Below, one piece after another: positions 25,586 through 64,000 of a stretch of DNA of 64,000 nt. The notes beneath the pieces were generated by a model, which was not told the origin of the DNA, made no database searches, and was given only the letters and a program-made list of their open reading frames with translations. Both the position numbers and the translations under genes were made by a program. The number at the start of each line of letters is the position of its first letter. Position 1 is the first letter of the stretch. Source of the DNA: an uncultured virus (IMG/VR IMGVR_UViG_3300044679_000029) (Duplodnaviria; Heunggongvirae; Uroviricota; Caudoviricetes); IMG/VR virus record IMGVR_UViG_3300044679_000029, positions 1 to 64,000 of that record, one strand, 5' to 3'.

Positions 25586-27826
25586 ATGAAATACGCTGTC
25601 GCCGCGCCAATGGATCAAACCATCGTGTATATACAGATTTCTTTCCCAGACTGTAATTCATATGCAGATACTACGTCACATAAATTCGCAAAGTTATTTG
25701 ATACGTATGAAGACGCGTATATCGCAACAGTTGTATACGACCACACACTACACCATAAATTCCGCGATCTCTGGTCGTCATATATTGAAGAGGTCCCAGA
25801 CGAAGTTGAATTTCGTAGTAGAGAGGACACGTGGTAAATGGAGCTTCTAATCTCAGCCATCCAAACCAGACTGCAGTCTGGTCATAATCAGACGTGCGTA
25901 ATTCTGACGTCTGAGGGCAAGACACCATGTAATTGTGGACACAAAGCCCTCGCCGACGCGTTGTTTAAGTTTAGAGAAGGAAAGGATAATACGAAATGAG
26001 TACCTTACCGACAGACTTCTTTACACCTCCAGCAAACTTGATTCATGACTGGAGTATGCAAGTAGGCGTGCCAACAACACCCGAGCAAGAACAAGAGTTT
26101 AGCAATCTATTACGACTAACGATTTGGCGCAAAATTGGAATGACGTGTAGTAGAGCCGGCGCCGGATGTGATAAGTTATTTCCAGTCAGTCAAATTCGTG
26201 AAGAAATGATTGGCCGGTTTGATAATATAGCGGATCAACATATTAAGATAGTTGATGCATTTATTGACTGGCTGAAGACCGTCGGGGAATACAAGGCCGC
26301 CTGGGGCACAATTAAGTATAACTCGTGCGCGAATGATATTGAGTTTATTCCACGAGAGAAGGGTAACACCAATGGTTAAACATCGAAAAGTAGGTGACTG
26401 GGTGTGGCTTAAGTCATATGCTGGTTTCATAGCATCAAACGCACCAATGTACGCACAGATCCAAAATGACGGCGGCAACGGTTGGTGCTTCAAGGAAAAC
26501 TGTGATCCTACTTGCTACGAGTGGGCCACATTACATACTGATAAAGGCGAAATGCTTTGTCATGTGAACGAGCGTGACATGTTTGATACTGAGGCCGAGG
26601 CTATAGCCGCGGAAGGAAAGTGATATGCCATTCAAAAAGATAGCAGATCTACCGAAAATTTGTCATGATCCAGGACACAATCCGCCAGGGATGATTGTAT
26701 TACCAGACGGCGTTTATGAGTATAGCTGCCCGAGTTGCGGTCGAGTCACAACGTTTACAGTCGCATCGCCAACTCTAAACGGTGGATGTTATGTTAGATC
26801 ATGGAAGTGTGATGTTTCTGATGTTCAACGGTGGACGGAGTAATATGAACAGCGATAATTTCTTCTCTATGGTTATTGGTCTTCTATGCGCATCGGTGCT
26901 ATGGCTTCTGGTTTTAATGGACCACGGACGGAATAAGACAGTAGTATTTCGTTGCGGTGACGCACAGTCTCCTATCGATGTATCGTCAAACGAATCACCA
27001 GACGGTATGGCTATACAATGTCCCAGTCATTCACACGTTACGGGTATTATATTAGACGCGCATGAAAGTATGATTGGTGACCGGTCCCGAGTTGTTTGTG
27101 AGTGTGATAAGTGAAGAAAATTGATGTCGGCTTTTGGGTCGTTATTACAGGATTCCTAATCTTATTTCTATCGCTACCGTTTATCGGGTATGAAATAGGA
27201 CTAACATACAATAAACCAGAGGAAGAAGCCCCAAATTATGAGAAGTGGTACGGTGAATGTAATACTCTTTTGACTTATTGTGTCTATACATTAGGTACAG
27301 AGAGACAGATGAAAGAGCATTTGCAAGAAACTTGTACGTGTGACGAAGATGGCGGTGAATAGATGTCTATACCACATTCAGAAGACGAAGCAATTATGCT
27401 CGAAGAAATCGAGTCTGCGAACTCCAAGAAAGAAATGTTAGCGGAGCTAAAGGCCGCTTACGACGAAGCTACCAGGTGGGTTGGCTGCGGTGACAATTCC
27501 TGTATGTTCGTTAAGCCTACAGGCATGGCGACTAATGGCGGTTGTAGGTGTCTAGGTCGTGACGGCTGCGCCCCAGGTATCCCTCGGTCGCTGGCCAAGT
27601 TGTATAAAGCAGCTAAGAAGTTGATCGAGGATAATAAGTGAAAAAGCAAACCAGTAAAACTAAGCAACTCAAAAACAAATTAGTTAAACTTCAACAGCAA
27701 CTTAAGGTAGCAGCCACCAAGTCTAAAAGATGGGCCCAGAAACTTGGGCCTTCTTTTTTAGCCTACTTCGACAGGATCTCCAAGCTGTGTTGTACCTCTG
27801 GCATACGAAGCTTTAGCGTCCTCTAA
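25586..27826 (+). other. cluster of small hypothetical ORFs (25586-25837, 25996-26379, 26372-26623, 26625-26843, 26845-27114, 27111-27362, 27363-27641, 27638-27826)
   Basis: Tightly packed or overlapping; several are Cys-rich (CPSCG; CGDNSC...GCRC) or have one TM segment. Confidence 0.55.
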
Positions 27827-30800
27827 GTTCTTAAACTTTGTGGTTCGTTTACCCGATTCGTGTTCGCACGTCGCTTTATAAACGCCAATTACAGCCTCAT
27901 GCGAGGGCTGGACCATTAGTCCTTTTGTGCGGTTATGGAGAATAAGATTACTCGTCGTCATACGTTTGGCCTCTTCGACGGCTGCGGGTGTTACGGGAAC
28001 ATGTAGAGAAACTGCGTCACCATCATAATCCATCGACATACCAGCATCGGCCCAACCGCTAGGGACCCTAACCGTCTTACCAGAAATGGGTATAGCCCAG
28101 TTTCCGATTATATTATATTTATGCAAAGATGGTGCGCGGTTGAATAGTACTGGCCGCTCCTTTGTTTCCGCTATCAGCGCGTTTCTAGCCGCGGGGTGTT
28201 GGTCTTCAATCATTTTTTTAGCTTCAAGAGCCGTACGCCCACCTCGAATAAGTCGGCGGCTTATAAAGGGTTCCATCATGCCCCACAACATTTGTTCCGG
28301 AACCCCGAGTTCGTCCATACCCAGTTGATTGTCAGGGGCTACTGTAGCTCGCCCGCTTAGATCTAGATTCTTCTTAATTATTTTTGACTGAAAGAAGCCA
28401 TACTTTGGCGAGCCCTGTCCGGCGATTAAACTCAAAAAACCCTTAACACCGCGAGACGCGTTCTGCGGACTTACGGGTTCTCGTAAACCAAATAGAGCCG
28501 CTACACTATGGTCTAAATGTTCACGGGCATTTTCTTTATCTTTATCGGTTAAATCTTTCGACGCAACTAAAGCGTCATTGGCCAAGAACACATCTCTATA
28601 AAGACTATTAGCGTCTGAAATCTGCATACGTCCGCCATGTCCGGGTAGTATCGGCCTCATGATAGGCGGAATAACTGGAATTTTACGCATGATATACGCC
28701 TTGTCAGGAGTAAGATTATTTTCCTTCAAGGCATTAATGTATTTCAGTTGCTTTACAGCATCATCGAATTTTGTACCCTTAAGACCGGGAAGTTGAAGTT
28801 TTAGTGATCTGGACCGGGAACTTAAATCGATATCACTTAATAGCTTTTCGACATGCTTAGCGCCGTGTTCTTTCAGCATTGCGTCCATGCCGCCGGAAGT
28901 AAGTCCAAGAAATCGGCGGGCTGAATCATGAAATACAGGATTTAGTATGGGCTCTGATAATTGTATGTGTGACCACTTGGTGCCGCTTAGACCACCAGTT
29001 GTGTTAGGGTCAAAGAAACCACCTTCTTCTGGTTTTAAATCTTTTGCACGAACGAAATCTTGCGTAGTAATTTTACCTGAGGATAATTCATTAACGTCAT
29101 TATCCGTCATAGGTGATAGTAATAGATTATCATCTGTTTTATTTACCTTAATTCCAGCGCCCTGTAACATCGCGATAAACTTATTATACGCAAACGAAGA
29201 CTTCAGTTGTGGTAGTGGGAGTCCAAGACGATAGCGCTGCCAAAAGTCGTCATTCTTTTGGCTCCTGAGGACGGCGTTTTCCTTTAATATATTTCTGGCG
29301 TTATGGGCCAATAAACAACTTACCTCCATACGCCCCAACCCCTTAGAACCCTCTTCACCACCACGAAGCGGTTGCTCATTAACATCATATCCTGGTCCAA
29401 TACCGTGCGCGCTATAGTTACTCTTTGTTGTTTTAAAAAGTTTGAACATATACATGGGACCTACATTGATGCCAGGAATCTTCTTATCTGTAACAGGATC
29501 GTATATAGTTTCTTTATCTGATAATCCCTGTTCACGCAAAAGTCTCTTGGCGTACTCGACGTTATCTTTGCCGGAGAAACTCTCGACAGCGATAGGCTTA
29601 CCTTTAGCTTGAGCAGCTTTGGCTACGGCCATCTCTATAACCTGTGCTGGATTAATACGCGAGATGACGCCTGCTGATGTCAAAAGAACATCTATAGGAT
29701 TACCTTTAGCATCACGTGGCATACGATCGTCTGGTATAATAGCAGAGATAACACCTTTGTTCCCGAATCTCCCGGAAAGCTTATCACCGAGCAACATCGG
29801 CTCTTCAGTCGAGACTGTAATCATTGTTCGCTTTGGGTCTTTTTTAACATCGATGATTTTGGCTGGAAATTCTCCGTCCCACGTTAAAGACGCATCTCGA
29901 TACGGCTTTAGCAAGGACTTACTAAGCTTACCCAACATGGCTTCTTGCGGCGATGGTTCTTTCTTACTCAAACTAACAAGCAGGGGGTCACCTGGTTGAA
30001 TAATTTTACCCTTTTTAATCACACCATCGTCGTCTAACGAATCGTAATTATCGGCCGTATACTTATTACCAAAGTAAGCCTTATGGCTATTCTTGCCAGC
30101 GCGCGTATTCGCGTCTGCTTCAAAGACGTGTTTGTACATACCCAACGAGGTTAGTTTTTTAGCCGCACCCTCTGATATAACGATACCGTCATTTGAGTTC
30201 AGTCCGTTGTAGGCCATGAACGCAACGTTCATATTTTTACCTAATGCTAACTTACCGTCTTTAGTAAAGTTAGATTCACCAAGTTGTTGGTTCTCCTCAA
30301 CGTGGTCGCCCTCTTTAACTATAAGATCGTGGTGTAAATAGGTCTTAGACGCGAGCGGGAAATCTGTATAATACGGGACTTTAACCAATTCTTCTTTTTT
30401 ACCCTCAGCGCCATGTTTGACGTGTGACGGAGCTATATAGATAAAGTCTTTATCGATCTTAGTGATCTTACCTTTGACCGGAGAGTTTGGTGTAGCTTGT
30501 TCGCCAAGCTCACCTTCCATCGTCCGACCTTTACGCCATGAAGCAACTTGCACCAAAGGCTGCTCGCGCTCTTTCAGCGGCAATGCCTGAGACACCATTT
30601 TGCTACCCATGATAAGACGGTTACCTTGCGACGATTCCGGAAAAGGTACAAGATTAGTCGCTGTGCTGTAAAGGAAATTAGAATGTGGAATTATAAATTC
30701 TACTTCTGAGACGGGCTTTGAATAAATAACGCCTTTATGTAGCACATCCACTTTACCACTCTTGGGAAAGTCTTTCTTTGGGAACGCAACCGCGTGCTTA

Positions 30801-32125
30801 TATAACTCAGCAGCCGAGATGTGTTCGAGCTTGCCGGTTTTCCGATTGAGGACCACAGTATACAAATTACCAGCATCATCTCTGAAAGCACTAATGGTAG
30901 CACGAATATCTACACCAACTTTTCCGGATTCTGGGGTACGTATAGGGTCAAGAATACCAAACTGCGTAGGATGTAACTCACGGACTTCGTCTGGCACAGC
31001 AGATTCAGATGCGATGCCACCTTCACCCATTAGAGTTACGCGATTAGCCGTGTCGGATATCTCCATGGGGTTGATCTGAGTTGGGATACTTGACACATCA
31101 GACGTAGTAATGAAACTACGAATGTGATCTGTGAACATAGACGGAGGTACTACTTTAGAGATAACCGGGTCATGACCGGCGTGGTCTAATTTAAACGCGA
31201 TCTTTCTTTTTAGTTCTTTAGCAGCGAATCCAAGATTTTCGCGTAAAAAATCTGTCCCACTATGGTAAGTCTTAAACGCGATAGAATTTCTATCGTCGAT
31301 TTCTTCTGCGTTTTTAAAGATATTTAGAAGTTTGTGCGATGCCTTAAGCATGACTTCGGGCGTTACTTTATCAGCAGGAATACCCAAAGTAGTCTGATTA
31401 ACCTCTGGATCCATCACGGTTCTACTGTAATACTCTTTTATAGCTGCTATCTTACCGGCGTGGTCTAGCGGCTCTTGCGCGAAATCTGGAATTAGTTTTT
31501 CGTAAAGTTTGGTAATTACGCCTTCAGTCTTCTTGCCGTGTTTTTCGTTATTCTTATCTGCCAGAGCAGCGCCCCATGCTTTAGCGATGTCTGCGTGCGG
31601 TACGCCTAAGGACGTTAATATGGGGTACAGCGGAATCTTAGATGTTTGAAACTCAACATTAAATACGCCTGATTCAGGTTCCATGCCAATACGGAAGTTA
31701 CGACCTTTTGCAAGATTGAAACTCGACTCTAATTCTTCATTCCCGCGTCTACGTGAATAAACACCGGACTTAAGACGCAGCTGATTAGCGACTGAATATT
31801 CGTTACCCCCTACTACGTAAGTTTGTCTTTCAGTCATCCACGGAGCGTTTAATACTGTAACCTGTTTTGAGCGCTCTAAGACTTTACCGTCCTTATCCTT
31901 TAGAATTAGATTAGCTTTAATGGGCTCATAAAGTGAACCGCCAGACAAAAGAGCATCCTTCTGTTCGGATGTACTAAAGTCCTTTTCATGTACAGTAGGA
32001 TTTTCTAGGTGAATGCTAAACTTGGAACCAGCAATAGGAAAAGCTGCCTGGATACCCTCCAGGAGTTTTGTTCTTAATTGCTTGCGGTGTTCTTCGGCCG
32101 GAAGAGATAGGGCTTCGAGAATCAT
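27758..32125 (-). CDS. multisubunit RNA polymerase: beta subunit fused to N-terminal/catalytic beta'
   Basis: RELHPTQFG.LDP..TPES, NRLIMGSKM..QA, GDKLSGRFGNKG, SRIN..Q, GRMEV; then GFFD, IPVIPP..RP, NRAPSLH, SMDYDGD. Confidence 0.95.
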   Translation of the reverse strand: MILEALSLPAEEHRKQLRTKLLEGIQAAFPIAGSKFSIHLENPTVHEKDFSTSEQKDALLSGGSLYEPIKANLILKDKDGKVLERSKQVTVLNAPWMTERQTYVVGGNEYSVANQLRLKSGVYSRRRGNEELESSFNLAKGRNFRIGMEPESGVFNVEFQTSKIPLYPILTSLGVPHADIAKAWGAALADKNNEKHGKKTEGVITKLYEKLIPDFAQEPLDHAGKIAAIKEYYSRTVMDPEVNQTTLGIPADKVTPEVMLKASHKLLNIFKNAEEIDDRNSIAFKTYHSGTDFLRENLGFAAKELKRKIAFKLDHAGHDPVISKVVPPSMFTDHIRSFITTSDVSSIPTQINPMEISDTANRVTLMGEGGIASESAVPDEVRELHPTQFGILDPIRTPESGKVGVDIRATISAFRDDAGNLYTVVLNRKTGKLEHISAAELYKHAVAFPKKDFPKSGKVDVLHKGVIYSKPVSEVEFIIPHSNFLYSTATNLVPFPESSQGNRLIMGSKMVSQALPLKEREQPLVQVASWRKGRTMEGELGEQATPNSPVKGKITKIDKDFIYIAPSHVKHGAEGKKEELVKVPYYTDFPLASKTYLHHDLIVKEGDHVEENQQLGESNFTKDGKLALGKNMNVAFMAYNGLNSNDGIVISEGAAKKLTSLGMYKHVFEADANTRAGKNSHKAYFGNKYTADNYDSLDDDGVIKKGKIIQPGDPLLVSLSKKEPSPQEAMLGKLSKSLLKPYRDASLTWDGEFPAKIIDVKKDPKRTMITVSTEEPMLLGDKLSGRFGNKGVISAIIPDDRMPRDAKGNPIDVLLTSAGVISRINPAQVIEMAVAKAAQAKGKPIAVESFSGKDNVEYAKRLLREQGLSDKETIYDPVTDKKIPGINVGPMYMFKLFKTTKSNYSAHGIGPGYDVNEQPLRGGEEGSKGLGRMEVSCLLAHNARNILKENAVLRSQKNDDFWQRYRLGLPLPQLKSSFAYNKFIAMLQGAGIKVNKTDDNLLLSPMTDNDVNELSSGKITTQDFVRAKDLKPEEGGFFDPNTTGGLSGTKWSHIQLSEPILNPVFHDSARRFLGLTSGGMDAMLKEHGAKHVEKLLSDIDLSSRSRSLKLQLPGLKGTKFDDAVKQLKYINALKENNLTPDKAYIMRKIPVIPPIMRPILPGHGGRMQISDANSLYRDVFLANDALVASKDLTDKDKENAREHLDHSVAALFGLREPVSPQNASRGVKGFLSLIAGQGSPKYGFFQSKIIKKNLDLSGRATVAPDNQLGMDELGVPEQMLWGMMEPFISRRLIRGGRTALEAKKMIEDQHPAARNALIAETKERPVLFNRAPSLHKYNIIGNWAIPISGKTVRVPSGWADAGMSMDYDGDAVSLHVPVTPAAVEEAKRMTTSNLILHNRTKGLMVQPSHEAVIGVYKATCEHESGKRTTKFKNLEDAKASYARGTTQLGDPVEVG

Positions 32126-32214
32126 GACTAATTATAGCCTTGGTCGGATAAGGGTGGAATGTGGTATAAGAGATATGGTATACTGCAATATAACCATTCA
32201 CCAAGGAGAATGCA

Positions 32215-33011
32215 ATGTATTTTACTCTCGTAGCCTGTGTTGCTGTTGGCTGTCTTCCTGTAATCTGTGAGGGCATCAAGTGGTATTGGAAAACCGGTTT
32301 TGCCTATATCTTCGACGGATTCGGCGATTAAGCAATTAATCACCGTTTTATGGTATAAGATATAGACATCTAAACCCCCATTTTCAGCCGGAGACCCCAA
32401 ACATGGAAAAGCTCAAGAAGGCAGTCAACCGAACGGTTCGCGCGGCCCTGTTCACAATAGCGTTTTACACAATCTCATTCGGAGTAGCGTACGCTGTAAC
32501 TGCGGCGTATGACAAACTATTCACCCCCAAATCCAAGGATAAGGAGAGCCGAAAATGATGAAGCTCGCAGATGCAATAGTCAAGACAGCCGTTGACACGT
32601 TGTGTCTGATCGTCGCTGGCGCTTTCGTAATTGCACTCCTTGATTCTGAGGAAACAGAAGAAGATTCTTCTCCAGCCAAGCCGGAGGTTCATTAACATGC
32701 AATACCAGGGTTGGAATGACTACTGGGTCATTCAGAGAAATCGCAAGTTCACGCAGTGGCTAAGCATTCTTCTTGCGGTCATTGCGCTGGTCATGTGCGC
32801 GTTTGTAGCAAAGCGCGCACGCGCAGCAGAACCAGATGCCGCCGTAATGTTGCGACCTTGGCAATTCTGCCGTCGTCGCGTCGACAAGTATTCTCACAGG
32901 CGAAAGTGGTGCTGGAACACCGACATCTGCTATAAATCACGCCAGATCTGCAACCGCTCTTTGACCGAGCAACTGCAATTTGAGCGTAGTACGGGTGCCA
33001 AAACCAGGTGA
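32215..33011 (+). CDS. four small single-TM proteins (32215-32331, 32403-32558, 32555-32695, 32697-33011)
   Basis: Each has an SD and one hydrophobic stretch; TGGTATAAG at 32162 and 32351. Confidence 0.6.
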
Positions 33012-34036
33012 ACCCTCAACCAGGAGTACACTTGAAAAGATCAATACATAGCAGAGCAGAAGTGGATGAAATCATCGTTAGAACGTGTCGCATGGAATCA
33101 CAGGTAGAACTGTTGGTGATCCAAATTGAGGAAGCCAAAATAGAACTACCATTCTTGCCGCCGATGCTACAGGCGAGAACCCTCCAAAATATCATTCAAT
33201 GGCAGAGTGCTATTTCGGATGTAGAGCGAACCATTGCTCGGGCAAAAAAGGCGCTAGTAATGATAATAGCGTCGAACAAGGACGTAGCGCGCGCATGAGT
33301 AGAAGCAGTCGAAAGAAAGAAGATGCGAAGGTTCTTTGTTGGTACGTTCGGAGGCACCTCGGACGGAAGCACGATACCGACCTGTATATAAGAGCGGTAT
33401 TTGCCATCCACGAGTTCAGGGCTAAGTACCCTGAAGTTCGTGTTGAGGAGATAGCTAAGTATGGCGACAAAGCTGGCAGTTAACGTACACGACGACAGCT
33501 GTATTTCCTGCAAGAAGCCCGTCGATCCCTCGAAGCAACGACAGGCTTTCATCCACGATCACTGCGAGCCAATTCAATTTTGGCCAAAGTGGCGGCGAGA
33601 GCAGGTTTTCGTAGACCGCGAGAAGGTTCTCGCCAATCGGGCGAAGAAGCTCGCTTCAGCAGAGGCATCTCGGTAGATGTGGGTGAGGACGCTGTGGGTC
33701 TTTGCGTCCCATCCTGTTTCAAAGAAGTTACTTCTCGTGCTCGGAACTGCGACGAAAAAGGCGCTCGGGTTCTGAACACACTGGTAGCAAACCCCAATCG
33801 GGAAGGCATTTATGGGCAGAAAGCTTTTGAGGTTTCTCGACGAGTTGAACGCAAAATCAGCGGACCGTCTCCCCGAACACACGATAGCAAGATTCATCCG
33901 GGAAGCAGTTGGGACTGATTCACCCGTCGATAATGCAGAGCTTGATGCACAGCTGGATCAGCTGATTGGGCTTGCAAAGCAGGCCCGAAATCAGCTGAAA
34001 TCTAAGCACAAGGAAAACGCAGAATATGAGAATTAG
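33008..34036 (+). other. small hypothetical ORFs (33008-33298, 33295-33483, 33461-33676, 33812-34036)
   Basis: Overlapping start/stop junctions lead into rpsL. Confidence 0.5.
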
Positions 34037-34439
34037 TCAGTTGGTCCGTTTGGGCCGAAAGAAAGTCCACAAGAAGAGCAAGTCGCCTGCATTGATGGGC
34101 AGCCCACAACTCAGCGGGACTGTTCTCCAAAGCAAGGTCATGAAGCCAAAGAAGCCGAATAGCGCAAATCGTCACATCGCGCGCATCCGACTGAGTAATG
34201 GCCGTGAAGTCACCGCTTACTGCGGTGGAGAGAACTCCAACGTGCAAGAGCACGCTCACGTTCTCGTTCGCGGTGGCCGAGTCCCGGATTTGCCGGGTGT
34301 GAAGTATCACATCGTACGCGGCGCTTTGGATTATTCCGGCGCCAATTGCATGAGCAAGTGCACCGCTGAACCCGGCAACGCTGGTGACAAGAAGATGCGT
34401 AACCAGGGCCGGTCGAAGTACGGTGTGAAGGCTCATTAA
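34026..34439 (+). CDS. rpsL: ribosomal protein uS12, divergent
   Basis: [73 protein letters not shown]. Confidence 0.95.
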
Positions 34440-34444
34440 CAGAT

Positions 34445-34499
34445 TGACAAACAAGCGGACCGTAGGCTTAGAAGTAGCCATCGGTCCGCTTGTTTGTCA
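34445..34499 (+). other. perfect 18-bp stem-loop directly after rpsL
   Basis: TGACAAACAAGCGGACCG ... CGGTCCGCTTGTTTGTCA. Confidence 0.75.
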
Positions 34500-34849
34500 T
34501 GTTGTCTTGTGGACACACTAACCAAGGAATAGCAATATGTCAACCAAAGTAATCGAAGCCGAGATAGTACAACCGTCGTAAAGCCGGAGTTGATCGACAA
34601 CCGCGTGACGCGAGGCAAGCTCGGAGCGTTCAAGAACAGCCTCAAGGGTGGCGCCGCGCAGTTGGCACTTCCTCCCGCGAAGAAGAACAAGAAGACTAAG
34701 TAACACCTTGTGGGCACACCAGAAACAAACTAGACCACTTGGGGATGAGTCGGCTAATCCATAGCGTCTATCTCGCATCTGGTCATTTAAAGTGCTGGTC
34801 ACTGCCCCACGTTTTATGCCCCGTCGTAACACCAACCAAGGAGAACACA

Positions 34850-35062
34850 ATGTCGCTAGACACAGAGCCACTCGTATTCGATGTGCTTGGCCCGGATGGC
34901 GAGCCAGTTCAATTCGAAAGAGCACATAGCATTCCGCTGCGCGTCACTGAGAATGAATTGACGTGGCTGTTTGCTGTCGTGAAGAAGCACGATCCAAAAG
35001 GGCAAATGGAGAGCATCCATGAGCAGCTCTTGGCTCAACTCACAAGGTGGTCGAGCCTGTAA
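34850..35062 (+). CDS. hypothetical protein
   Basis: AAGGAG SD before MSLDTEP. Confidence 0.6.
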   Translation: MSLDTEPLVFDVLGPDGEPVQFERAHSIPLRVTENELTWLFAVVKKHDPKGQMESIHEQLLAQLTRWSSL

Positions 35063-35070
35063 TTAAGGTC

Positions 35071-35157
35071 GGGCCTGTGGCGAAACTGGTAGACGCACTG
35101 GACTCAAAATCCGGCGCCCTTCGATAAGGCATCTCGGTTCGAGTCCGAGCGGGCCCA
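35071..35157 (+). tRNA. tRNA-Leu (CAA); CCA end not encoded
   Basis: Acceptor stem GGGCCTG/CGGGCCC-A, D-loop TGGTAGAC, anticodon arm CTGGA-CT CAA AA-TCCGG, long variable arm, T arm GGTTCGAGTCC. Confidence 0.93.
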
Positions 35158-35169
35158 TAAGGAGATAAC

Positions 35170-35466
35170 ATGCAACAAGTTTTCATCGTAATTGGTTCTA
35201 CCGGCGAGTATGACGACCATACTGAATGGACGGTAGCGGCGTACGCGACGGAGATCGAAGCAACTTGGCATGCGCGCAAAGCTGAGATGTGGGCGGATGC
35301 TAATGCGGAACAGTTTAGGGAACATAGTTGCTCTTGTAGTCCACTAGTAAATCCGTACGACGAGGATATGCAAATGGATTACAGCGGCACTAGCTATTCT
35401 GTTCAGGGGCCGCTCGCTATTCTAACGCGGAAACAAACTGAGGACCGCGTTAAGGGAATAACATGA
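35170..35466 (+). CDS. hypothetical phage protein
   Basis: AAGGAG SD; VFIV.GSTGEYDD..EW.V motif. Confidence 0.65.
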   Translation: MQQVFIVIGSTGEYDDHTEWTVAAYATEIEATWHARKAEMWADANAEQFREHSCSCSPLVNPYDEDMQMDYSGTSYSVQGPLAILTRKQTEDRVKGIT

Positions 35467-35599
35467 AAATCATCTGCGACAGGAACACGAAATGACAACG
35501 GTAGAAATAACAAAAACGACATCGAAGTCGCTCTGAGCAGGGCCACCGAAGGAAACGTTACAATTTATGTCGACGATCTTGTTCGACTAGGAGACTAAA

Positions 35600-36232
35600 A
35601 TGAAATGGTTCTCAGAAGTAAAACCACTCGGGGACATTCGTCTCCCGGCTTTCATGGGTATCAGAATTCAGATGATGCCCGTGATTCTGGGCTACATGGA
35701 TAGCATTCCGTACGAGCTTCGGCACTTTCGAGAGACCATTCTCAGAATATTCTGCTTGATGGATCAGAAGCACATCGGACAGACTGGCTACTTGACCATC
35801 GATGAGAAGTTCGTCAGATTCGGTCAATTCCACCGGCGGTCGGGTTTGCACGTCGATGCTGGTGGGTGGGGTGGCAGTGGACCAAGGCATCCCGCCGCGA
35901 GCGCAGACAATGGCATGATCGTGACGCAGAGCCACGAGCACACTGTTGCCTACCACCAAGCATTCGAAGGTGAGATTGGTGAAGAGGGTGATTGCAAGTG
36001 TTTGCGTCGACAGGCAATAGCACCGAATCCTCTCAAGGCTTTCAAAGCCTACTGGCTCAGTGGGCTGACAGTCCACGGACACATCTCGCCAATGCTTCAA
36101 GACACAGCACGGCAATTCGTGCGACTGAGTTTGCCGTCTGACGCGCCGTGGTTTGACGGCTACACCGAAAACCCTTTGGGCGTCAAACCTACAGGTCCGG
36201 TGCTACCAAGACGCAAGTTCATGGATTTGTGA
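35600..36232 (+). CDS. 2OG-Fe(II) dioxygenase-like protein
   Basis: HRR.GLHVD (HxD), a distal His (VHGH) and RQFVRL; jelly-roll-like spacing. Confidence 0.6.
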   Translation: MKWFSEVKPLGDIRLPAFMGIRIQMMPVILGYMDSIPYELRHFRETILRIFCLMDQKHIGQTGYLTIDEKFVRFGQFHRRSGLHVDAGGWGGSGPRHPAASADNGMIVTQSHEHTVAYHQAFEGEIGEEGDCKCLRRQAIAPNPLKAFKAYWLSGLTVHGHISPMLQDTARQFVRLSLPSDAPWFDGYTENPLGVKPTGPVLPRRKFMDL

Positions 36233-36261
36233 TTTCGGGTCAAAATCTGGTATAAGATATT

Positions 36262-36911
36262 GATCCGCGAATCATCGCTTCGCGATGCATGAGGCGGTAG
36301 ATCAATCCTGGTCTGGATAGTTCCAGGACCTTGGGTCTATCGCCTCACGTTAACTCTGGGCCTGTAAGCGTGTGTGCCAGCACAGTATGAGAACATCCGG
36401 TCGTTACAGCCGGTTAGGGACCAGTGACCCCCGGACATTGGTCCGGGGATAGGCCTGATGTAACCTCCGTCGCTGGCTTGGCGACGAACCTGAAATGCGT
36501 GCTCATTTGTGGGCCGCTGATTGTAAGGGACAAGTCAAACCACTTGGCTGCGGGTCGCCACCGCGGTGTTTCGAGAATTATAAGTGGGCCAGGGTTTCTC
36601 GTTACCTGGCACTTTTCAAACTGCCCGGCCGAAACGAGACCGGTTTAAAGTGTTCGCGAACTTCAGATCAGTTGGGACTGAACTAGTTCCCAGGTCAAGT
36701 CGCGATCTAAAAATCTCCTACAAAAAGCCCGATCCTGCAAGACCGGGTAATAAAAAGGAGTAGCCTTGCAGGGCGTTTAACGGGATGACGTAAATCGGGC
36801 GCGCGAGGCTGATACCTTGCGATGCTGACAGAATACGAAAACTCTCGTCAGGTTTGTGCTCTGGACCCATGGGTGGACGCCGGGGCACAAACCTGCTGTG
36901 TTCTTCGCAGC
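36262..36911 (+). ncRNA. putative large structured non-coding RNA (~650 nt)
   Basis: Starts just after TGGTATAAG (36248); no credible ORF; at least 12 hairpins with G-U pairs on the plus strand. Confidence 0.65.
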
Positions 36912-36941
36912 ACAAACCCGTAGCAAGAAAGAGGCAATCAC

Positions 36942-37127
36942 ATGAGAACCGTTGAGTACTACTCCAAACTGAACGCGATCTGTGCTGAGTACTGCCCCAA
37001 GCTGGACGCGTGCGACGCTGAGTCCTGCTCCAAACTGAACGCGCTCAAAGCCGAGTTCAAGTCCAAGCTGGACGCGCTCGACGCTGAGTCCCACCTCAAC
37101 CAGCCCGCCGTCAGCACAAACCCGTAG
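36942..37127 (+). CDS. 11-residue-repeat mini-protein 1 (61 aa)
   Basis: GAGG SD in the linker; SKLnAl.AEy. repeats. Confidence 0.65.
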   Translation: MRTVEYYSKLNAICAEYCPKLDACDAESCSKLNALKAEFKSKLDALDAESHLNQPAVSTNP

Positions 37128-37145
37128 CAAGAAAGAGGCAATCAC

Positions 37146-37382
37146 ATGAGAACCGTTGACAAATTCAATTCCAATGAGTACTGCTCCAAGCTGGACGCGA
37201 TCAATGCTGAGCGCGACTCCAAGCTGGACGCGATCAATGCTGAGTACTTCTCCAAGCTGGACGCGATCAATGCTGAGCGCGACTCCAAGCTGGACGCGAT
37301 CAGTGCTGAGCGCGACTCCAAGCTGGACGCGCTCGACGCTGAGTACCACCTCAACGAGCCCGCCGTCAGCACAAACCCGTAG
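37146..37382 (+). CDS. 11-residue-repeat mini-protein 2 (78 aa)
   Basis: SKLDAINAERD repeats. Confidence 0.65.
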   Translation: MRTVDKFNSNEYCSKLDAINAERDSKLDAINAEYFSKLDAINAERDSKLDAISAERDSKLDALDAEYHLNEPAVSTNP

Positions 37383-37400
37383 CAAGAAAGAGGCAATCAC

Positions 37401-37817
37401 ATGAAAACCTTTGTTGACGAAATCAAGTCCAAGATGAACGCGTTCAGTGCTGAGTACTTCTCCAAGCTGGACGCGCGCGACGCTGAGTACAAGTCCAGGC
37501 TGGACGCGATCAGTGCTGAGTACAAGTCCAAGGCTGAGTTCAAGTCCAAGCGGAACGCGATCAATGCTGCGTACGACTCCAAGCGGAACGCGATCAACGC
37601 TGGGTACTTCTCCAAGCTGAACGCGTTCAGAGCCGAGTGCAGGTCCAAGCTGAACGCGCTCAGTGCTGAGTACGACTCCAAGCTGAACGCGATCAACGCT
37701 GGGTACTTCTCCAAGCTGAACGCGTTCAGAGCCGAGTGCAGGTCCAAGCTGAACGCGCTCAGTGCTGAGTACTTCCCCAAGCTGGAAGCGCTCATTGCTG
37801 AGTACCACCTCAACTAG
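37401..37817 (+). CDS. 11-residue-repeat mini-protein 3 (138 aa)
   Basis: About 11 repeat units. Confidence 0.65.
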   Translation: MKTFVDEIKSKMNAFSAEYFSKLDARDAEYKSRLDAISAEYKSKAEFKSKRNAINAAYDSKRNAINAGYFSKLNAFRAECRSKLNALSAEYDSKLNAINAGYFSKLNAFRAECRSKLNALSAEYFPKLEALIAEYHLN

Positions 37818-37859
37818 CCCGCCGTCAGCACAAACCCGTAGCAAGAAAGAGGCAATCAC

Positions 37860-38024
37860 ATGAGAACCGTTGACAAATTCAATTCCAAGCTGTACGCGCT
37901 CGGTGCTGAGTACGACTCCAAGCTGTACGCGATCAACGCTGAGTACAGATCCAAGCTGAACGCGATCAATGCTGAGTACTTATCCAAGCTGAAAGCGCTC
38001 GACGCTGAGTCCCACCTCAACTAG
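37860..38024 (+). CDS. 11-residue-repeat mini-protein 4 (54 aa); not in ORF track
   Basis: MRTVDKFNSKLYALGAEYDSKLYAINAEYRSKLNAINAEYLSKLKALDAESHLN*. Confidence 0.65.
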   Translation: MRTVDKFNSKLYALGAEYDSKLYAINAEYRSKLNAINAEYLSKLKALDAESHLN

Positions 38025-38066
38025 CCCGCCGTCAGCACAAACCCGTAGCAAGAAAGAGGCAATCAC

Positions 38067-38348
38067 ATGAGAACCGTTGACAAATTCAATTCCAAACTGA
38101 ACGCGATCAGTGCTGAGTCCAGGATAAACGCGATCAGTGCTGAGTACGACTCCGAGCTGAACGCGATCAATGCTGAGTACTGCTCCAAGATGAACGCGCT
38201 CAGTGCTGAGTACTGCTCCGAGCTGGACGCGTGCGACGCTGGTCACTGCTCCAAACTGAACGCGCTCAAAGCCGAGCTCAAGTCCGAGCTGGACGCGCTC
38301 GACGCTGAGTCCCACCTCAACCAGCCCGCCGTCAGCACAAACCCGTAG
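38067..38348 (+). CDS. 11-residue-repeat mini-protein 5 (93 aa)
   Basis: Same unit; its 3' part closely matches mini-protein 1. Confidence 0.65.
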   Translation: MRTVDKFNSKLNAISAESRINAISAEYDSELNAINAEYCSKMNALSAEYCSELDACDAGHCSKLNALKAELKSELDALDAESHLNQPAVSTNP

Positions 38349-38362
38349 CTCAAACCGGAGGT

Positions 38363-38572
38363 GTGCAAGTGATAATCAAGCCGAATCAGTTGACTCCCAT
38401 CCCAGAGGGCATCAAGATCAAGAAGATTTCGGCAGGCGAAACCAGCGGAGTCTTCTTTGTGATCAGCCACATCACAAGGTTCATGTCGCGGGAAAACAAG
38501 AATTCGCGGCGTAAGCCAGACCAGTATCAGCCCAGAAATCTCTCGGGCTTCGATCCGGTCGAGAGCGAATAA
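38363..38572 (+). CDS. hypothetical basic protein
   Basis: GGAGG SD precedes GTG codons. Confidence 0.45.
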   Translation: MQVIIKPNQLTPIPEGIKIKKISAGETSGVFFVISHITRFMSRENKNSRRKPDQYQPRNLSGFDPVESE

Positions 38573-38724
38573 TCTTCTAGACTTTCTCCCGGGCTAAGGT
38601 CATGCCTGGTAATGGCCCTAATTAGTCAATGCGGGCTAGAAAGCGGGAATCCCATGAAGTGGACCTAGCGATCCGACAATCTAATGCATAGATTAGCACT
38701 AGAATAACTCTGAGAAAACTGTGA

Positions 38725-38837
38725 GCCCACAAGAAGATATCTTCTTGTATATACGTTTATAACCCCCCAATCTGACAGAAATTGTCGGAACGGCAATGGG
38801 AATAAACGTGTATACGTGAGGATATCTTCTTGTGGGC
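38725..38837. repeat. long imperfect inverted repeat containing a 20-bp palindrome
   Basis: GCCCACAAGAAGATATC...GATATCTTCTTGTGGGC arms; ACAAGAAGATATCTTCTTGT palindrome at 38729-38748. Confidence 0.85.
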
Positions 38838-38936
38838 AATTAAGATTTGTCGGTTTTTAGGTTGACTTCCTATAACATCTGAATTATACTAGACATGATT
38901 AGCGGAACTATAATTTAGTACTAGGAAGACAAACTA

Positions 38937-40688
38937 ATGCCTTTATATACCGACGCAGTTCAAGGGAGCTTATTTCCCTCTAGTAACAGTCAACCCAATC
39001 CTTTATTTACTTATCTCCAGGGGTTTATTCCCAGAAAACTCAAGGACCTATTTAGGTGGTTGGAATATCTATCCTATAACTCAACGCATATCTATGCCGG
39101 ACTATATAAGCTCGCGGATTATTCGGTTACAGACGTTCAATACTTAACCGATTCCACCCAGGAAAAAACTCGGCATAAAGATTTACTTGAGAAGACGTTA
39201 CACATTAAATCGTTACTTAAAGCAGCGTCACGCGACCGCCTTATATACGGAAATAGTTTCATATCTCTATACATGCCGTTTATCCGCAATATGGTGTGCA
39301 CTGGTTGTAAGATTAAGCGCAATATAGATACTGTCGACTATAAGTTTAAGTGGAAGAATCTTACGTTTAACTGGCTTTGCAAGGAATGCGGCCAATCAAA
39401 CATGACTGGCGTCGACGATTTTGAGGATATCAAAGTCCCCAACCATAAGCGTATTAACGTTATCCGGTGGGACCCCAAGCTGATAGACATCGATTATAAT
39501 CCCCTAACCGGTGAAAGCACAATCTACTACACGATTCCAAAAGAAGTTAAGGAGAAGATTCGTGCTGGTAATAAGCATCTTCTAAATTCGATGCCTGTTG
39601 GATTTTTAAAGGCCGTCAAAGAAGATCGTCTATTTAAGTTCGACAGAGGTCAAGTCTTCCATATGAAGATCGATGCACCAGCCGGTATCGATTCTCAGTG
39701 GGGCTTCTCACCGTTACTAGCAACTATTCCTAGCTTCCTGTATGTGGCCGTATTACGTAAGGCCAACGAAGCCATCGCATTAGATTTCGCTGTACCTCTT
39801 CGTATTCTTCACCCGGCACAATCGTCTTCTAACGCTGATCCGGTGTCGACTATTAACTTAGGTAACTGGACTGAGAAGACACGCGAAAATATTCGTAAGT
39901 GGCGTCGAGACCCCTTGCACATCATGTTTGCGCCTGTGCCATTAGGAATAACTCAGATGGGTGGGACTGCAAAATTGCTCTTAACTGCAACTGAGATTCG
40001 TGACGTAGAGGATAACATTATTACTGCTCTAGGTATTCCTCGTGAATTTATTTACGGCGGGATGACTATGACCGGGTCTAGCGTAACACTACGCATGTTA
40101 GAGAACCAACTTCTAACTCAGACCAAAGATCTAGAAGACTTAATGGGTTGGATTGACGACAAGTGTGCGACATTCTTAGGGTGGGGTAAGATACATACTG
40201 AGCTACTGCCGTTTAAACTTGTGGACGATGTTGCGCAAAAAAATGTTCTAGTTCAAATTAATCAAGTTAAACCGATTATTTCTGATACTACAATCGCAGA
40301 AGTCTTCGGCTACGATCTTAAGAAAGAGCGAAAGCTTAGAATGCAAGAAGCATTGGACGAGGCGCGCTTCCAGATGGAAATGCAGAAGAGCGTTTCTGAT
40401 ATACAAAATAACCTTGGCCAGCAAGCACGGACACAAGCGGGATCCGCACCGCCATATAATCCTCAGCAGATTGTACAACAGGCTGATCAACTCGTACAAC
40501 AGTTATCGGGACTCGATCACGGTTCCCGCAAATCTGAACTAGATAAACTAAAAAAAGAAGACTTCGTTCTATACGCGGTAACAGCGAAACGTCTTGAGGA
40601 CTATAACAATACTCAAACTCAGGCAGCCAAAAGTCAACAAACAGGTGGCGGACAACCGGCACCGCAACCGTCGGGCGGAGCAAAGTAG
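38937..40688 (+). CDS. portal protein with Zn-ribbon insertion
   Basis: D.LIYGNSF, RWDPK.I.I, WG.SPL..., I.ALGIP.EFI.GG portal-like motifs; CTGC/CKEC insert; Q-rich C-terminus. Confidence 0.75.
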   Translation: MPLYTDAVQGSLFPSSNSQPNPLFTYLQGFIPRKLKDLFRWLEYLSYNSTHIYAGLYKLADYSVTDVQYLTDSTQEKTRHKDLLEKTLHIKSLLKAASRDRLIYGNSFISLYMPFIRNMVCTGCKIKRNIDTVDYKFKWKNLTFNWLCKECGQSNMTGVDDFEDIKVPNHKRINVIRWDPKLIDIDYNPLTGESTIYYTIPKEVKEKIRAGNKHLLNSMPVGFLKAVKEDRLFKFDRGQVFHMKIDAPAGIDSQWGFSPLLATIPSFLYVAVLRKANEAIALDFAVPLRILHPAQSSSNADPVSTINLGNWTEKTRENIRKWRRDPLHIMFAPVPLGITQMGGTAKLLLTATEIRDVEDNIITALGIPREFIYGGMTMTGSSVTLRMLENQLLTQTKDLEDLMGWIDDKCATFLGWGKIHTELLPFKLVDDVAQKNVLVQINQVKPIISDTTIAEVFGYDLKKERKLRMQEALDEARFQMEMQKSVSDIQNNLGQQARTQAGSAPPYNPQQIVQQADQLVQQLSGLDHGSRKSELDKLKKEDFVLYAVTAKRLEDYNNTQTQAAKSQQTGGGQPAPQPSGGAK

Positions 40689-41091: not shown

Positions 41092-42873
41092 ATGACAGCA
41101 ACCCTGGAATTAAAATTCGCAGGTGCACTACCTCTATTGTCTCTGCCAGCAAGCACGCCTGGTGCCGACAGAATCTTTGGGGCACAATTATCTAAAGATA
41201 AAACGAAATTTCTGTACCCAGGTTTTTTCCCACAGCATGAAATAGTTATTAGCGATATAAAAACCAGCGAATTGAACGTAATCATTCCTGAAAACGTGGC
41301 TAATCATATTACACAGGAGAGTAGTCATAAGGATCTAATTTTAGACCCAAACTTCCAATTTATCACTAAACCATTTGACCATCAAATTGAATCGCTAAAG
41401 TACTGCATTAGCCGGTTGCGTAGCGCACTTTTATTAGACTGTGGTTTGGGAAAATCTAAAGTCGCAATAGACATGTTGCGCTACCAAAAGTTTATCGGTA
41501 AGCCATGCAAGACTATTGTTGTGTGCCCGAAAACTGTGTTGTTTAGTTGGGAAAACGAGATAGCTAAACATAGCGGAAATGAACTAACAACTACTGTTAT
41601 AGATGGTACGCCTAAGAAAAAATTAGAGTTACTTAACAAGGATACCGACGTCTATCTTATTACATATAGCGCTCTAGCCAAAAAAGAATTTCTTAAAACT
41701 GTAATCGATATTATTCCCTATGATACAGTTATATTGGACGAGAGTCACAACCTACAAAGTCCGTCTTCGCAGAAGACTAAAGCGTGTTTAGCCCTATGCC
41801 AAAAAGCAGCCAGACGCGTTATTATGAGCGGGACCGTAACTTTTGGGTCGCCCATTCATCTATATGGTCAATTAAAATTCCTTGGTAATTTTCTAATACC
41901 GGAAGGCGATTCGTGGAAGTTTTGTAATCGATTCGTTAACTACGGACAAAAGTTTAATCATAAGGTTATTGTCGGATATAAGAATACTGACGTACTGGAG
42001 AAGCGCCTTTCCAGTGTTAGTGTGAAATACACGAAGGAGGTTTGCTTAGATTTACCTGAACGGTACATAATCGATGAGCCGTATCAGGTATCAGAAGAAC
42101 AAAAACAAGAATATAATGCATTCATAGAAGCGCCCATGCAAGAAGTTGCCTCGCGTTTAAACGTAAGTAATGACGCGGCGGCGGCAGTACGACTAATAAA
42201 GTTAACACAAATTCTATCTGGCTTTCGAATAGAAAGCAATAAAGACCATAAAATTTGTGATAATTGCGAGTTCGTAAATGGGTGTGTTGAGAATAAAATT
42301 CTACCGTATACCAACGATTGTCAAAAAATAAAAATATCTCCCCCAGACACAATTCATAAATATCCAAATCCCAAACTAGATCGAGCCGAGAACTTATTAA
42401 CTAGTATTCTCTCTGAGCCGACTTCAAAAGTGGTGGTATGGTACCATTACAAACTGGAGCTGGAGTCTATAGAAATGATGTTGCACGCCTTGGGCGTGCA
42501 GGAGATTATAATAAATGGCAGTAAAGATTCAAGAAGTATTAGAACTGATATTGAGCGGTTTGAAACGGATCCAGGAGTTAGGGCCTGCGTTTGCCAAGTT
42601 GGTTGCTCTAGCGGTTTCACTATTTGTAGAGCTAACTACGTTATCTACTACGGTGTAGATTTCTCGCTGGCTAACTACCTCCAGAGTATCGACAGGAATT
42701 ACCGCATCGGTCAAGACCGTAAAGTAATTTGCTATAGATTGTACGCACCAGGATCGGTAGAAGAATTGATCTTCAAAGCTCTAGATAGCAAAGAAGAAAT
42801 CAAGAACGCCCTTATGGGCAAAACCGAAGTCTCTGAGATGCTACGATATATAGTTAGACCGAAGCCGCTATAA
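41092..42873 (+). CDS. SNF2-family helicase
   Basis: DCGLGKS, VCP, ILDESH, MSGT, QSIDRNYRIGQ motifs; Cys-rich insert. Confidence 0.92.
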   Translation: MTATLELKFAGALPLLSLPASTPGADRIFGAQLSKDKTKFLYPGFFPQHEIVISDIKTSELNVIIPENVANHITQESSHKDLILDPNFQFITKPFDHQIESLKYCISRLRSALLLDCGLGKSKVAIDMLRYQKFIGKPCKTIVVCPKTVLFSWENEIAKHSGNELTTTVIDGTPKKKLELLNKDTDVYLITYSALAKKEFLKTVIDIIPYDTVILDESHNLQSPSSQKTKACLALCQKAARRVIMSGTVTFGSPIHLYGQLKFLGNFLIPEGDSWKFCNRFVNYGQKFNHKVIVGYKNTDVLEKRLSSVSVKYTKEVCLDLPERYIIDEPYQVSEEQKQEYNAFIEAPMQEVASRLNVSNDAAAAVRLIKLTQILSGFRIESNKDHKICDNCEFVNGCVENKILPYTNDCQKIKISPPDTIHKYPNPKLDRAENLLTSILSEPTSKVVVWYHYKLELESIEMMLHALGVQEIIINGSKDSRSIRTDIERFETDPGVRACVCQVGCSSGFTICRANYVIYYGVDFSLANYLQSIDRNYRIGQDRKVICYRLYAPGSVEELIFKALDSKEEIKNALMGKTEVSEMLRYIVRPKPL

Positions 42874-63889: not shown

Positions 63890-64000
63890 TGCGTTTAGAG
63901 GATTAGGATTTAGAACATTTAAGTCGTTAGGAGAAGCTATTCGGAGTAGAACTTCTATTGGTCCGTCTACACTTCCAGTCCTTAGAATAACGAAGCTATT

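Follow-up and report, generated by a model that had tools for sequence, protein, structure and literature searches.

Genes and features of the GC-rich insert

The stretch of DNA analysed here, called the window, runs from position 1 to position 64,000 of a virus record that is 117,101 bases long, is estimated to be 65% complete and belongs to an uncultured phage of peat and freshwater habitats. Its G+C content is 0.48-0.56 within ~32.1-38.9 kb and 0.40-0.46 in the surroundings. The genes and other features of this GC-rich insert are given in Table 1. The gene that follows the insert encodes a portal-like protein with 32% identity to the product of the annotated portal protein gene of a 181-kb Salmonella phage, and relatives at 84-92% identity are present in the protein collection (P0121-P0123, P0241). 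In distant kin, the portal gene is preceded by a short gap and then by a divergent gene, which in the nearest kin locus that was fetched (L042, 55%) encodes an SNF2-type helicase, like positions 41092-42873 of the window. Since distant kin have only this short gap before the portal gene, the whole insert looks particular to this phage. On its other side, both halves of a 1455-aa protein encoded on the minus strand (27758-32125) match PHROGs for the beta subunit of phage RNA polymerase, and the protein looks like a fused beta/beta-prime-like subunit; no close relatives of it were found in the viral contig collection.

Within the insert, a homologue of ribosomal protein S12 (uS12) is encoded 630 nt upstream of a gene for tRNA-Leu(CAA). 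In the main text of a survey entitled 'Numerous cultivated and uncultivated viruses encode ribosomal proteins' (10.1101/174177), S12 appears only as a figure number. Most of the small ORFs in 32.4-35.6 kb are without a Pfam or PHROG match. The 210-aa ORF that comes next has a best non-self match of 51% identity, and its family shows invariant H84, D86, H159, R171 and R175; in relatives, another ORF lies directly behind this gene. The structural neighbours of the protein in the Atlas are JmjC, 2OG-Fe(II)-oxygenase and cupin clusters, with a TM of only about 0.5, and the position of the gene beside the uS12 gene recalls the ribosomal-protein hydroxylases. The stretch that is the subject of this work (36262-36911) begins 1.1 kb downstream of the tRNA-Leu gene, with two ORFs between them.

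The locus is present, at least in part, in 24 sequencing runs from 21 studies of peat, freshwater, lake and soil, and seven of these runs are RNA libraries. The contigs of four of the 24 runs (X4, X5, X13 and X17) were compared in detail. Downstream of the stretch, the array of mini-genes holds 27 repeat copies in a 33-nt register. One copy of an identical 34-nt unit stands before each mini-gene (at 36908, 37112, 37367, 37826 and 38033), and the 17-nt core of this unit has six copies. The content of the array varies between samples, with a joint 36907>38333 in X5 and several joints in X13. The strand opposite the array is open for 360 aa, and the leader repeat of the mini-genes has no match in the viral contig collection. 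The space separating a 69-aa ORF (38363-38572) from the portal-like gene holds a 36-bp inverted repeat, the most extreme structure predicted anywhere in the record; with a z-score of -10.24 for 38575-38900, it ranks first of 974 windows on both strands.

Table 1. Features in and around the GC-rich insert, in coordinates of the window.
Feature	Position	Strand	Remarks
GC-rich insert	32130-38936		between RNA-polymerase gene and portal-like gene
Ribosomal protein S12 homologue	34026-34439	+	137 aa; Pfam PF00164, E 7.9e-29
tRNA-Leu(CAA)	35071-35157		Rfam cmscan and ARAGORN
210-aa ORF	35600-36232	+	mainly viral family, 182 hits; phrog_8970, E 6.8e-27
Promoter-like motif	36242-36259	+	extended -10 type, core TGGTATAAGA; recurs in the phage
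Discrete RNA species, ~357 nt	36272-36628	+	RNA-run contig ends against adapter
Composite hairpin	36290-36347	+	14-bp stem and two 4-bp apical stems; in 6 of 6 folds
8-bp hairpin	36429-36448	+	4-nt loop; in 6 of 6 folds
3+5-bp hairpin with bulge	36497-36517	+	in 6 of 6 folds
6-bp hairpin	36588-36610	+	GCCAGG/CCTGGC; kept in the three long folds
Second hairpin-rich leader segment	36629-36941	+	X4 RNA contigs; runs into first mini-gene
Terminator-like hairpin and T-run	36728-36747	-	8 pairs (5 G-C), 4-nt loop, T-rich tail
15-16-bp hairpin	36849-36895	+	inverted repeat I4, 88% complementary; in the three long folds
First of five identical 34-nt units	36908-36941	+	with ribosome-binding site
Five mini-genes of 33-nt (11-residue) repeats	36942-38348	+	61, 78, 138, 54 and 93 aa
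36-bp inverted repeat I1 (38725-38760 / 38802-38837)	38725-38837	+	89% complementary; end of unit
Portal-like 583-aa ORF	38937-40688		hundreds of relatives (contigs of up to 207 kb)

The stretch is non-coding and is transcribed

The original prediction for 36262-36911 was a densely structured non-coding RNA of ~650 nt. No ORF of more than 74 aa occurs in the stretch. Protein coding under another genetic code was rejected because no frame is open when TAA, TAG or TGA is recoded, the longest stop-free run being 126 codons (minus strand, TGA recoded). There are ORFs of 59-74 aa, and the 74-aa one has no relatives among 5.8 billion proteins. The indels listed in near-identical copies (about 98% identity) are +9 and +2 in X17, -1, +1 and +1 in X13, and +1 and -1 in X5; the two longest plus-strand ORFs contain frame-breaking ones (36499, 36506, 36509 and 36571), and no Shine-Dalgarno-like sequence was seen by eye before the ATG at 36495. 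The neighbouring 210-aa ORF provides a contrast, with five of its six listed substitutions at third codon positions. Given indels that are not multiples of three, the lack of an open frame and the lack of a protein relative, the stretch is non-coding.

The expected expression was found in RNA libraries of two studies, whose contigs cover the stretch and have adapter-flanked ends. The contigs of the RNA runs X4 and X17 start at 36272, directly after Illumina adapter letters, and the X4 contig ends at 36628, with adapter letters next. As contig-adapter junctions assemble only if many fragments end at that point, these ends are fixed, the first at 36272 or 36273 (the T at 36272 may be the last adapter base). 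The 5' end is the same in X4 and X17 although X17 has a 9-nt insertion 13 nt downstream. The contig depth of this 357-nt species is 30.5 in X4 and 105.3 in X17, against 4-12 in neighbouring contigs, a figure given once per contig rather than from raw reads, which cannot rank genes or gene parts and is taken as a hint only. With this reservation, the 357-nt contig is the deepest of the locus in X4, and also in X17 except for the tRNA bin, whose depth includes contigs of other organisms. Cover at the 4-kb scale is patchy in both RNA runs (21 and 18 of 30 bins for X4 and X17, respectively), which speaks against DNA carry-over because this would be even.

Transcript cover does not stop at 36628. 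Two X4 contigs, 36599-36937 (depth 10.6) and 36926-37089 (depth 8.93), continue it into the first mini-gene, and neither a terminator search nor inspection by eye gave a convincing plus-strand intrinsic terminator at 36628. In the X13 library, an RNA-run contig (36032-36640) crosses the promoter-like motif and there is no discrete 5' end; this contig could be read-through or DNA. Another X13 contig, of low depth, skips 36835-36886. The non-coding status, the transcription and the stable hairpins of the original prediction thus stand, but the RNA is not a single one of 650 nt: its ends delimit a discrete species of ~357 nt, and the remainder is leader that runs into the five mini-genes. The 650 nt are better read as this 5' species followed by a mini-gene operon leader of ~310 nt.

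The strand can be approached from the adapters. By the adapter sequences given in 10.1101/2021.09.07.459340, read 2 meets the adapter whose letters follow 36628, and read 1 meets the one whose reverse complement stands before 36272. The first mate is thus a minus-strand read, and most stranded libraries yield such reads from plus-strand RNA. If the libraries are of this common type, the RNA would have plus-strand polarity, in agreement with the promoter-like motif. That the stretch gives instead a minus-strand RNA, or encodes one or more small proteins, seems to us extremely improbable. The minus strand, too, surpasses its shuffles in folding and carries a terminator-like site (36747-36728), and the ORFs of 59-74 aa do exist, but the way the adapters lie in two libraries and the presence of the motif on the plus strand argue for the other strand, and the broken frames, the missing protein relatives and the missing Shine-Dalgarno-like sequence argue against a protein. 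The minus-strand terminator-like hairpin itself could stop antisense transcription from the mini-gene array.

A promoter-like motif precedes the RNA

A 22-nt query made from the motif gave three matches with up to three mismatches in the window and none in 100 shuffles. A search of the 117-kb record for the 10-nt core TGGTATAAGA, with at most one substitution allowed, gives 17 plus-strand copies and no minus-strand copy, and several of the 17 stand at the heads of plus-strand gene blocks. Long gene blocks also run on the minus strand, and the plus-only core may mark one temporal promoter class. A twin of the motif, identical at 21 of 22 positions, is found at 89728-89749 of the genome and is followed by small ORFs and a tRNA-Ile(TAT) gene (L123 6379-6451). 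The motif upstream of the RNA is therefore a putative promoter, which would start transcription of the plus strand. Position 36272 lies 16 nt past the -10-like hexamer, an unusually long distance; given this spacing, the end at 36272 may be a processing site or may have been shortened by library construction.

Local hairpins are stable and the overall fold depends on the cut

All 11 pairs of hairpin arms listed in the original prediction are present, once each, at 36291-36895. On the plus strand, 36240-36920 has a minimum free energy (MFE) of -266.9 kcal/mol (z -4.40), and none of 20 dinucleotide shuffles folds as well. The same holds against 100 shuffles for 36263-36628 (z -3.53), 36272-36628 (-148.5 kcal/mol, z -3.72) and 36629-36941 (z -3.14). 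The minus strand departs from its own shuffles almost as far (z -3.62 and -3.24), and of the 17 kcal/mol by which the plus strand is the more stable, most is compositional, as the means of the shuffles differ by 14. Nor is there the bias towards G-U-compatible mismatches on the plus strand that had been read from the sequence: the MFE structure contains 24 G-U pairs on each strand.

The excess over shuffles was then set against the genome background. Random 357-nt windows have a mean z of -0.85 (sd 1.26), and one of the 58 drawn reaches -3.7. When 974 windows of 240 nt were ranked after regression on GC content, the stretch stood out at its 5' end only (36121 at rank 6 and 36241 at rank 16), and the windows from 36361 to 36721 rank between 119 and 180. 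The predicted superiority of the fold over dinucleotide shuffles is thus confirmed on the plus strand, with the qualifications that it is moderate relative to the genome and similar on the minus strand.

The 357-nt model has 118 pairs, of which 51-58 persist when the flanks are changed and 38 are found in all six folds. Local hairpins are therefore solid, and the overall architecture depends on where the sequence is cut. A closing helix that ends at 36628 was rejected as an artefact of the cut site, its probability being 0-0.25 once flanks are added. Three hairpins occur in every fold (Table 1), among them the composite one, which is the first hairpin of the original list. The 8-bp hairpin is altered in X13 by two changes, 36444 C>T, which turns a G-C into a G-U pair, and 36441 G>A, by which the loop-closing pair is lost. 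The hairpin with a bulge takes insertions in its bulge and loop (after 36499 in X17, after 36506 and 36509 in X13). For the 6-bp hairpin, the 3' arm pairs with 36374-36380 instead in the 357-nt fold. The leader segment contains four more of the listed hairpins (36673-36692, 36727-36800, 36802-36821 and 36825-36851), and the 15-16-bp hairpin stands just before the first mini-gene.

Variation among near-identical copies

The comparative data consist of near-identical copies only (about 95-99% identical). In the three contigs for which the list of substitutions is complete (X13-3, X5-23 and X17-9), there are nine substitution sites in 36272-36663, and seven of them fall in predicted pairs: two lead to G-U pairs, five break the pair and none is compensated. 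This is about what chance or unconstrained transitions would give. The density of sites, nine in 392 nt, is close to that of the adjoining third codon positions (five in about 140). RNA-level selection, which had been deduced from the G-U pairs, is accordingly not supported, the count being symmetric and none of the nine substitutions compensated. The indels lend the fold weak support at best: of the six listed sites, from an incomplete list, four are in unpaired parts of the 36272-36628 model and five in those of the 36263-36628 model (binomial estimates of about 0.1 and 0.02).

These patterns bear on the possibility that selection has not acted on the fold and that the stretch is a long untranslated 5' spacer, in which the hairpins are by-products, proposed to be repeat remnants or DNA-level palindromes, and the 357-nt species is a decay intermediate that persists because its hairpins are strong. 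The near-synonymous density of substitutions, the frequent indels and the mostly disruptive changes in stems are what such a spacer would show, as are the one random window in 58 that folds as well, the many unremarkable 240-nt windows and the restriction of the RNA to one phage species as far as searched. We nevertheless hold it to be rather unlikely, since the same 5' end recurs in two studies despite the nearby insertion in X17, no shuffle in 100 reaches the z of -3.7, and the indels are mostly in unpaired positions. Furthermore, the palindrome TTCGCGAA is not enriched (two sites against 1.37 expected), which also led us to reject a DNA operator on this palindrome.

Searches for relatives

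The RNA has no match among 4227 Rfam families, which include tmRNA, RNase P, GOLLD and ROOL. At the gathering score, cmscan reports only a tRNA in the whole window, and with E up to 10 it gives four unrelated weak matches of 16-19 bits in 36100-37050. Group I and group II introns, riboswitches, T-box and other cis-regulatory Rfam families gave no match. Likewise, the absence of tmRNA and RNase P signatures was borne out: ARAGORN finds no tmRNA in the window, Rfam gives no match to one, and there is no Rfam match to RNase P at E up to 10.

Homologues of the RNA were not found by a distant blastn search of 50,697 phage records, nor were exact patterns taken from it found in the viral contig and metagenome contig collections. 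Related loci were sought in viral contigs through the 210-aa ORF, the portal-like ORF, the RNA polymerase, an alignment of the mini-proteins and P0123, and none was found. When the RNA was compared by nhmmer and blastn with 39 + 80 loci of distant kin, there were just two chance matches (20-23 nt, E 0.75), and Rfam gave no match on the six of the 80 loci that were scanned. In 5 + 401 bacterial genomes there are only chance matches of 23-26 nt, in four of the 401. Thus no evolutionary support for a conserved fold or a function was found, and within the scope of these searches the RNA occurs in a single phage species.

Several specific roles were considered and rejected. For a retron, a diversity-generating retroelement (DGR) or a guide RNA, the reverse transcriptase family PF00078 is without a match in the 117-kb record (65% complete), and the test for a TnpB/IscB-type nuclease (PF07282) gave one sub-threshold match, 67 kb away. 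For an antisense regulator of phage genes, the complementary runs of 11-13 nt are of about the length estimated for chance. Mimicry of 16S rRNA is marginal: the stretch and one 16S gene have seven words of 9 nt or more in common, where shuffles have 3.2, and this is equalled by 44 of 1000 shuffles and 17 of 696 phage windows.

The same results weigh on the proposal of a stand-alone structured RNA of a new class that acts in trans, in a setting like that of GOLLD and ROOL, and in which the fold matters and not the position. A discrete species with fixed ends and the top contig depth (in X4, and in X17 except for the tRNA bin), a promoter-like motif of its own, folding beyond shuffles, no match to a known family and a place in the island that also carries tRNA-Leu and the uS12 homologue are all in its favour. 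Yet it has no homologue that we could find and no compensatory change, its global fold is unstable in silico, its complementarity to the phage genome stays within chance length, and transcription continues into the mini-genes. We therefore see this proposal as unlikely.

A proposed leader-derived RNA at the head of an accessory operon

The reading that we find best supported, with chances about equal for and against it, is that the stretch is the non-coding transcribed 5' part of an accessory operon in the GC-rich insert of an uncultured phage of ~180 kb, and that a stable RNA derives from the leader of this operon through an event in cis near 36628. A non-coding sequence covered by RNA contigs, with fixed ends and stable local hairpins, can be accommodated by the following scheme, which for promoter use, strand, processing or attenuation and any function is conditional throughout. 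Transcription of the plus strand would start within about 10-15 nt downstream of the putative promoter at 36242-36259. The first ~357 nt (36272/3-36628), with their very stable hairpins, would constitute the discrete species, and transcripts would also run through the leader (36629-36941) into the five mini-genes, as the cover suggests. In the mechanism that seems most likely, premature termination or endonucleolytic cutting near 36628 would release the 5' segment, which its hairpins would protect against decay. The same event may also set how much transcription, or how much mRNA, reaches the mini-genes.

A bolder claim would be that with the 357-nt RNA a new class of structured phage RNAs begins, and that this RNA is the working partner of its unusual neighbourhood, which comprises the uS12 homologue, the tRNA-Leu, the JmjC/2OG-oxygenase-like protein, the strain-variable array of mini-genes and the giant terminal hairpin. 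If true, the RNA would tune host ribosomes together with the phage uS12, or would control a new kind of variable mini-gene cassette. We find this quite improbable. On present evidence the RNA, confined to one phage species, is a lead and not a new RNA class. It is a real, expressed orphan, clearly novel as a sequence and with a predicted fold. Few large structured RNAs of phages have been described, mostly without an assigned function. An orphan with fixed ends whose expression can be seen in the peat metatranscriptomes of two studies is a concrete candidate, and behind it lies an odd operon, made up of repeat mini-genes that vary between strains.

Comparison with known systems

GOLLD and ROOL are large non-coding RNAs (10.1101/2024.12.08.627333, PMC5737381). 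The RNA of this phage resembles them in its setting only: it is large, hairpin-rich, non-coding and borne by a phage, as they are by phages or prophages. It differs in that it gives no match to their covariance models at E up to 10, has neither a family of homologues nor covariation here, and is co-transcribed with downstream genes. GOLLD and ROOL, whose function is unknown and which are often near tRNA genes, are also longer than the ~357-nt species.

The processed or terminated 5' leaders, such as riboswitches, T-boxes and attenuators, offer another likeness. Here too an operon begins with an RNA at its 5' end, the short species from this end is deeper than the run-on contigs, and hairpins precede the ribosome-binding site of the first gene. 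Unlike them, the stretch matches no cis-regulatory family of Rfam and has no clear plus-strand terminator at the 3' end of the RNA, and at 357 + 310 nt it is far longer than is typical.

Finally, the species 1 and 2 RNAs of phage T4 are stable RNAs of unknown function that are encoded by a phage near its tRNA genes. They are much smaller and are processed from tRNA precursors, whereas the RNA described here has the tRNA-Leu gene 1.1 kb upstream, with two ORFs in between, and is preceded by a promoter-like motif of its own.
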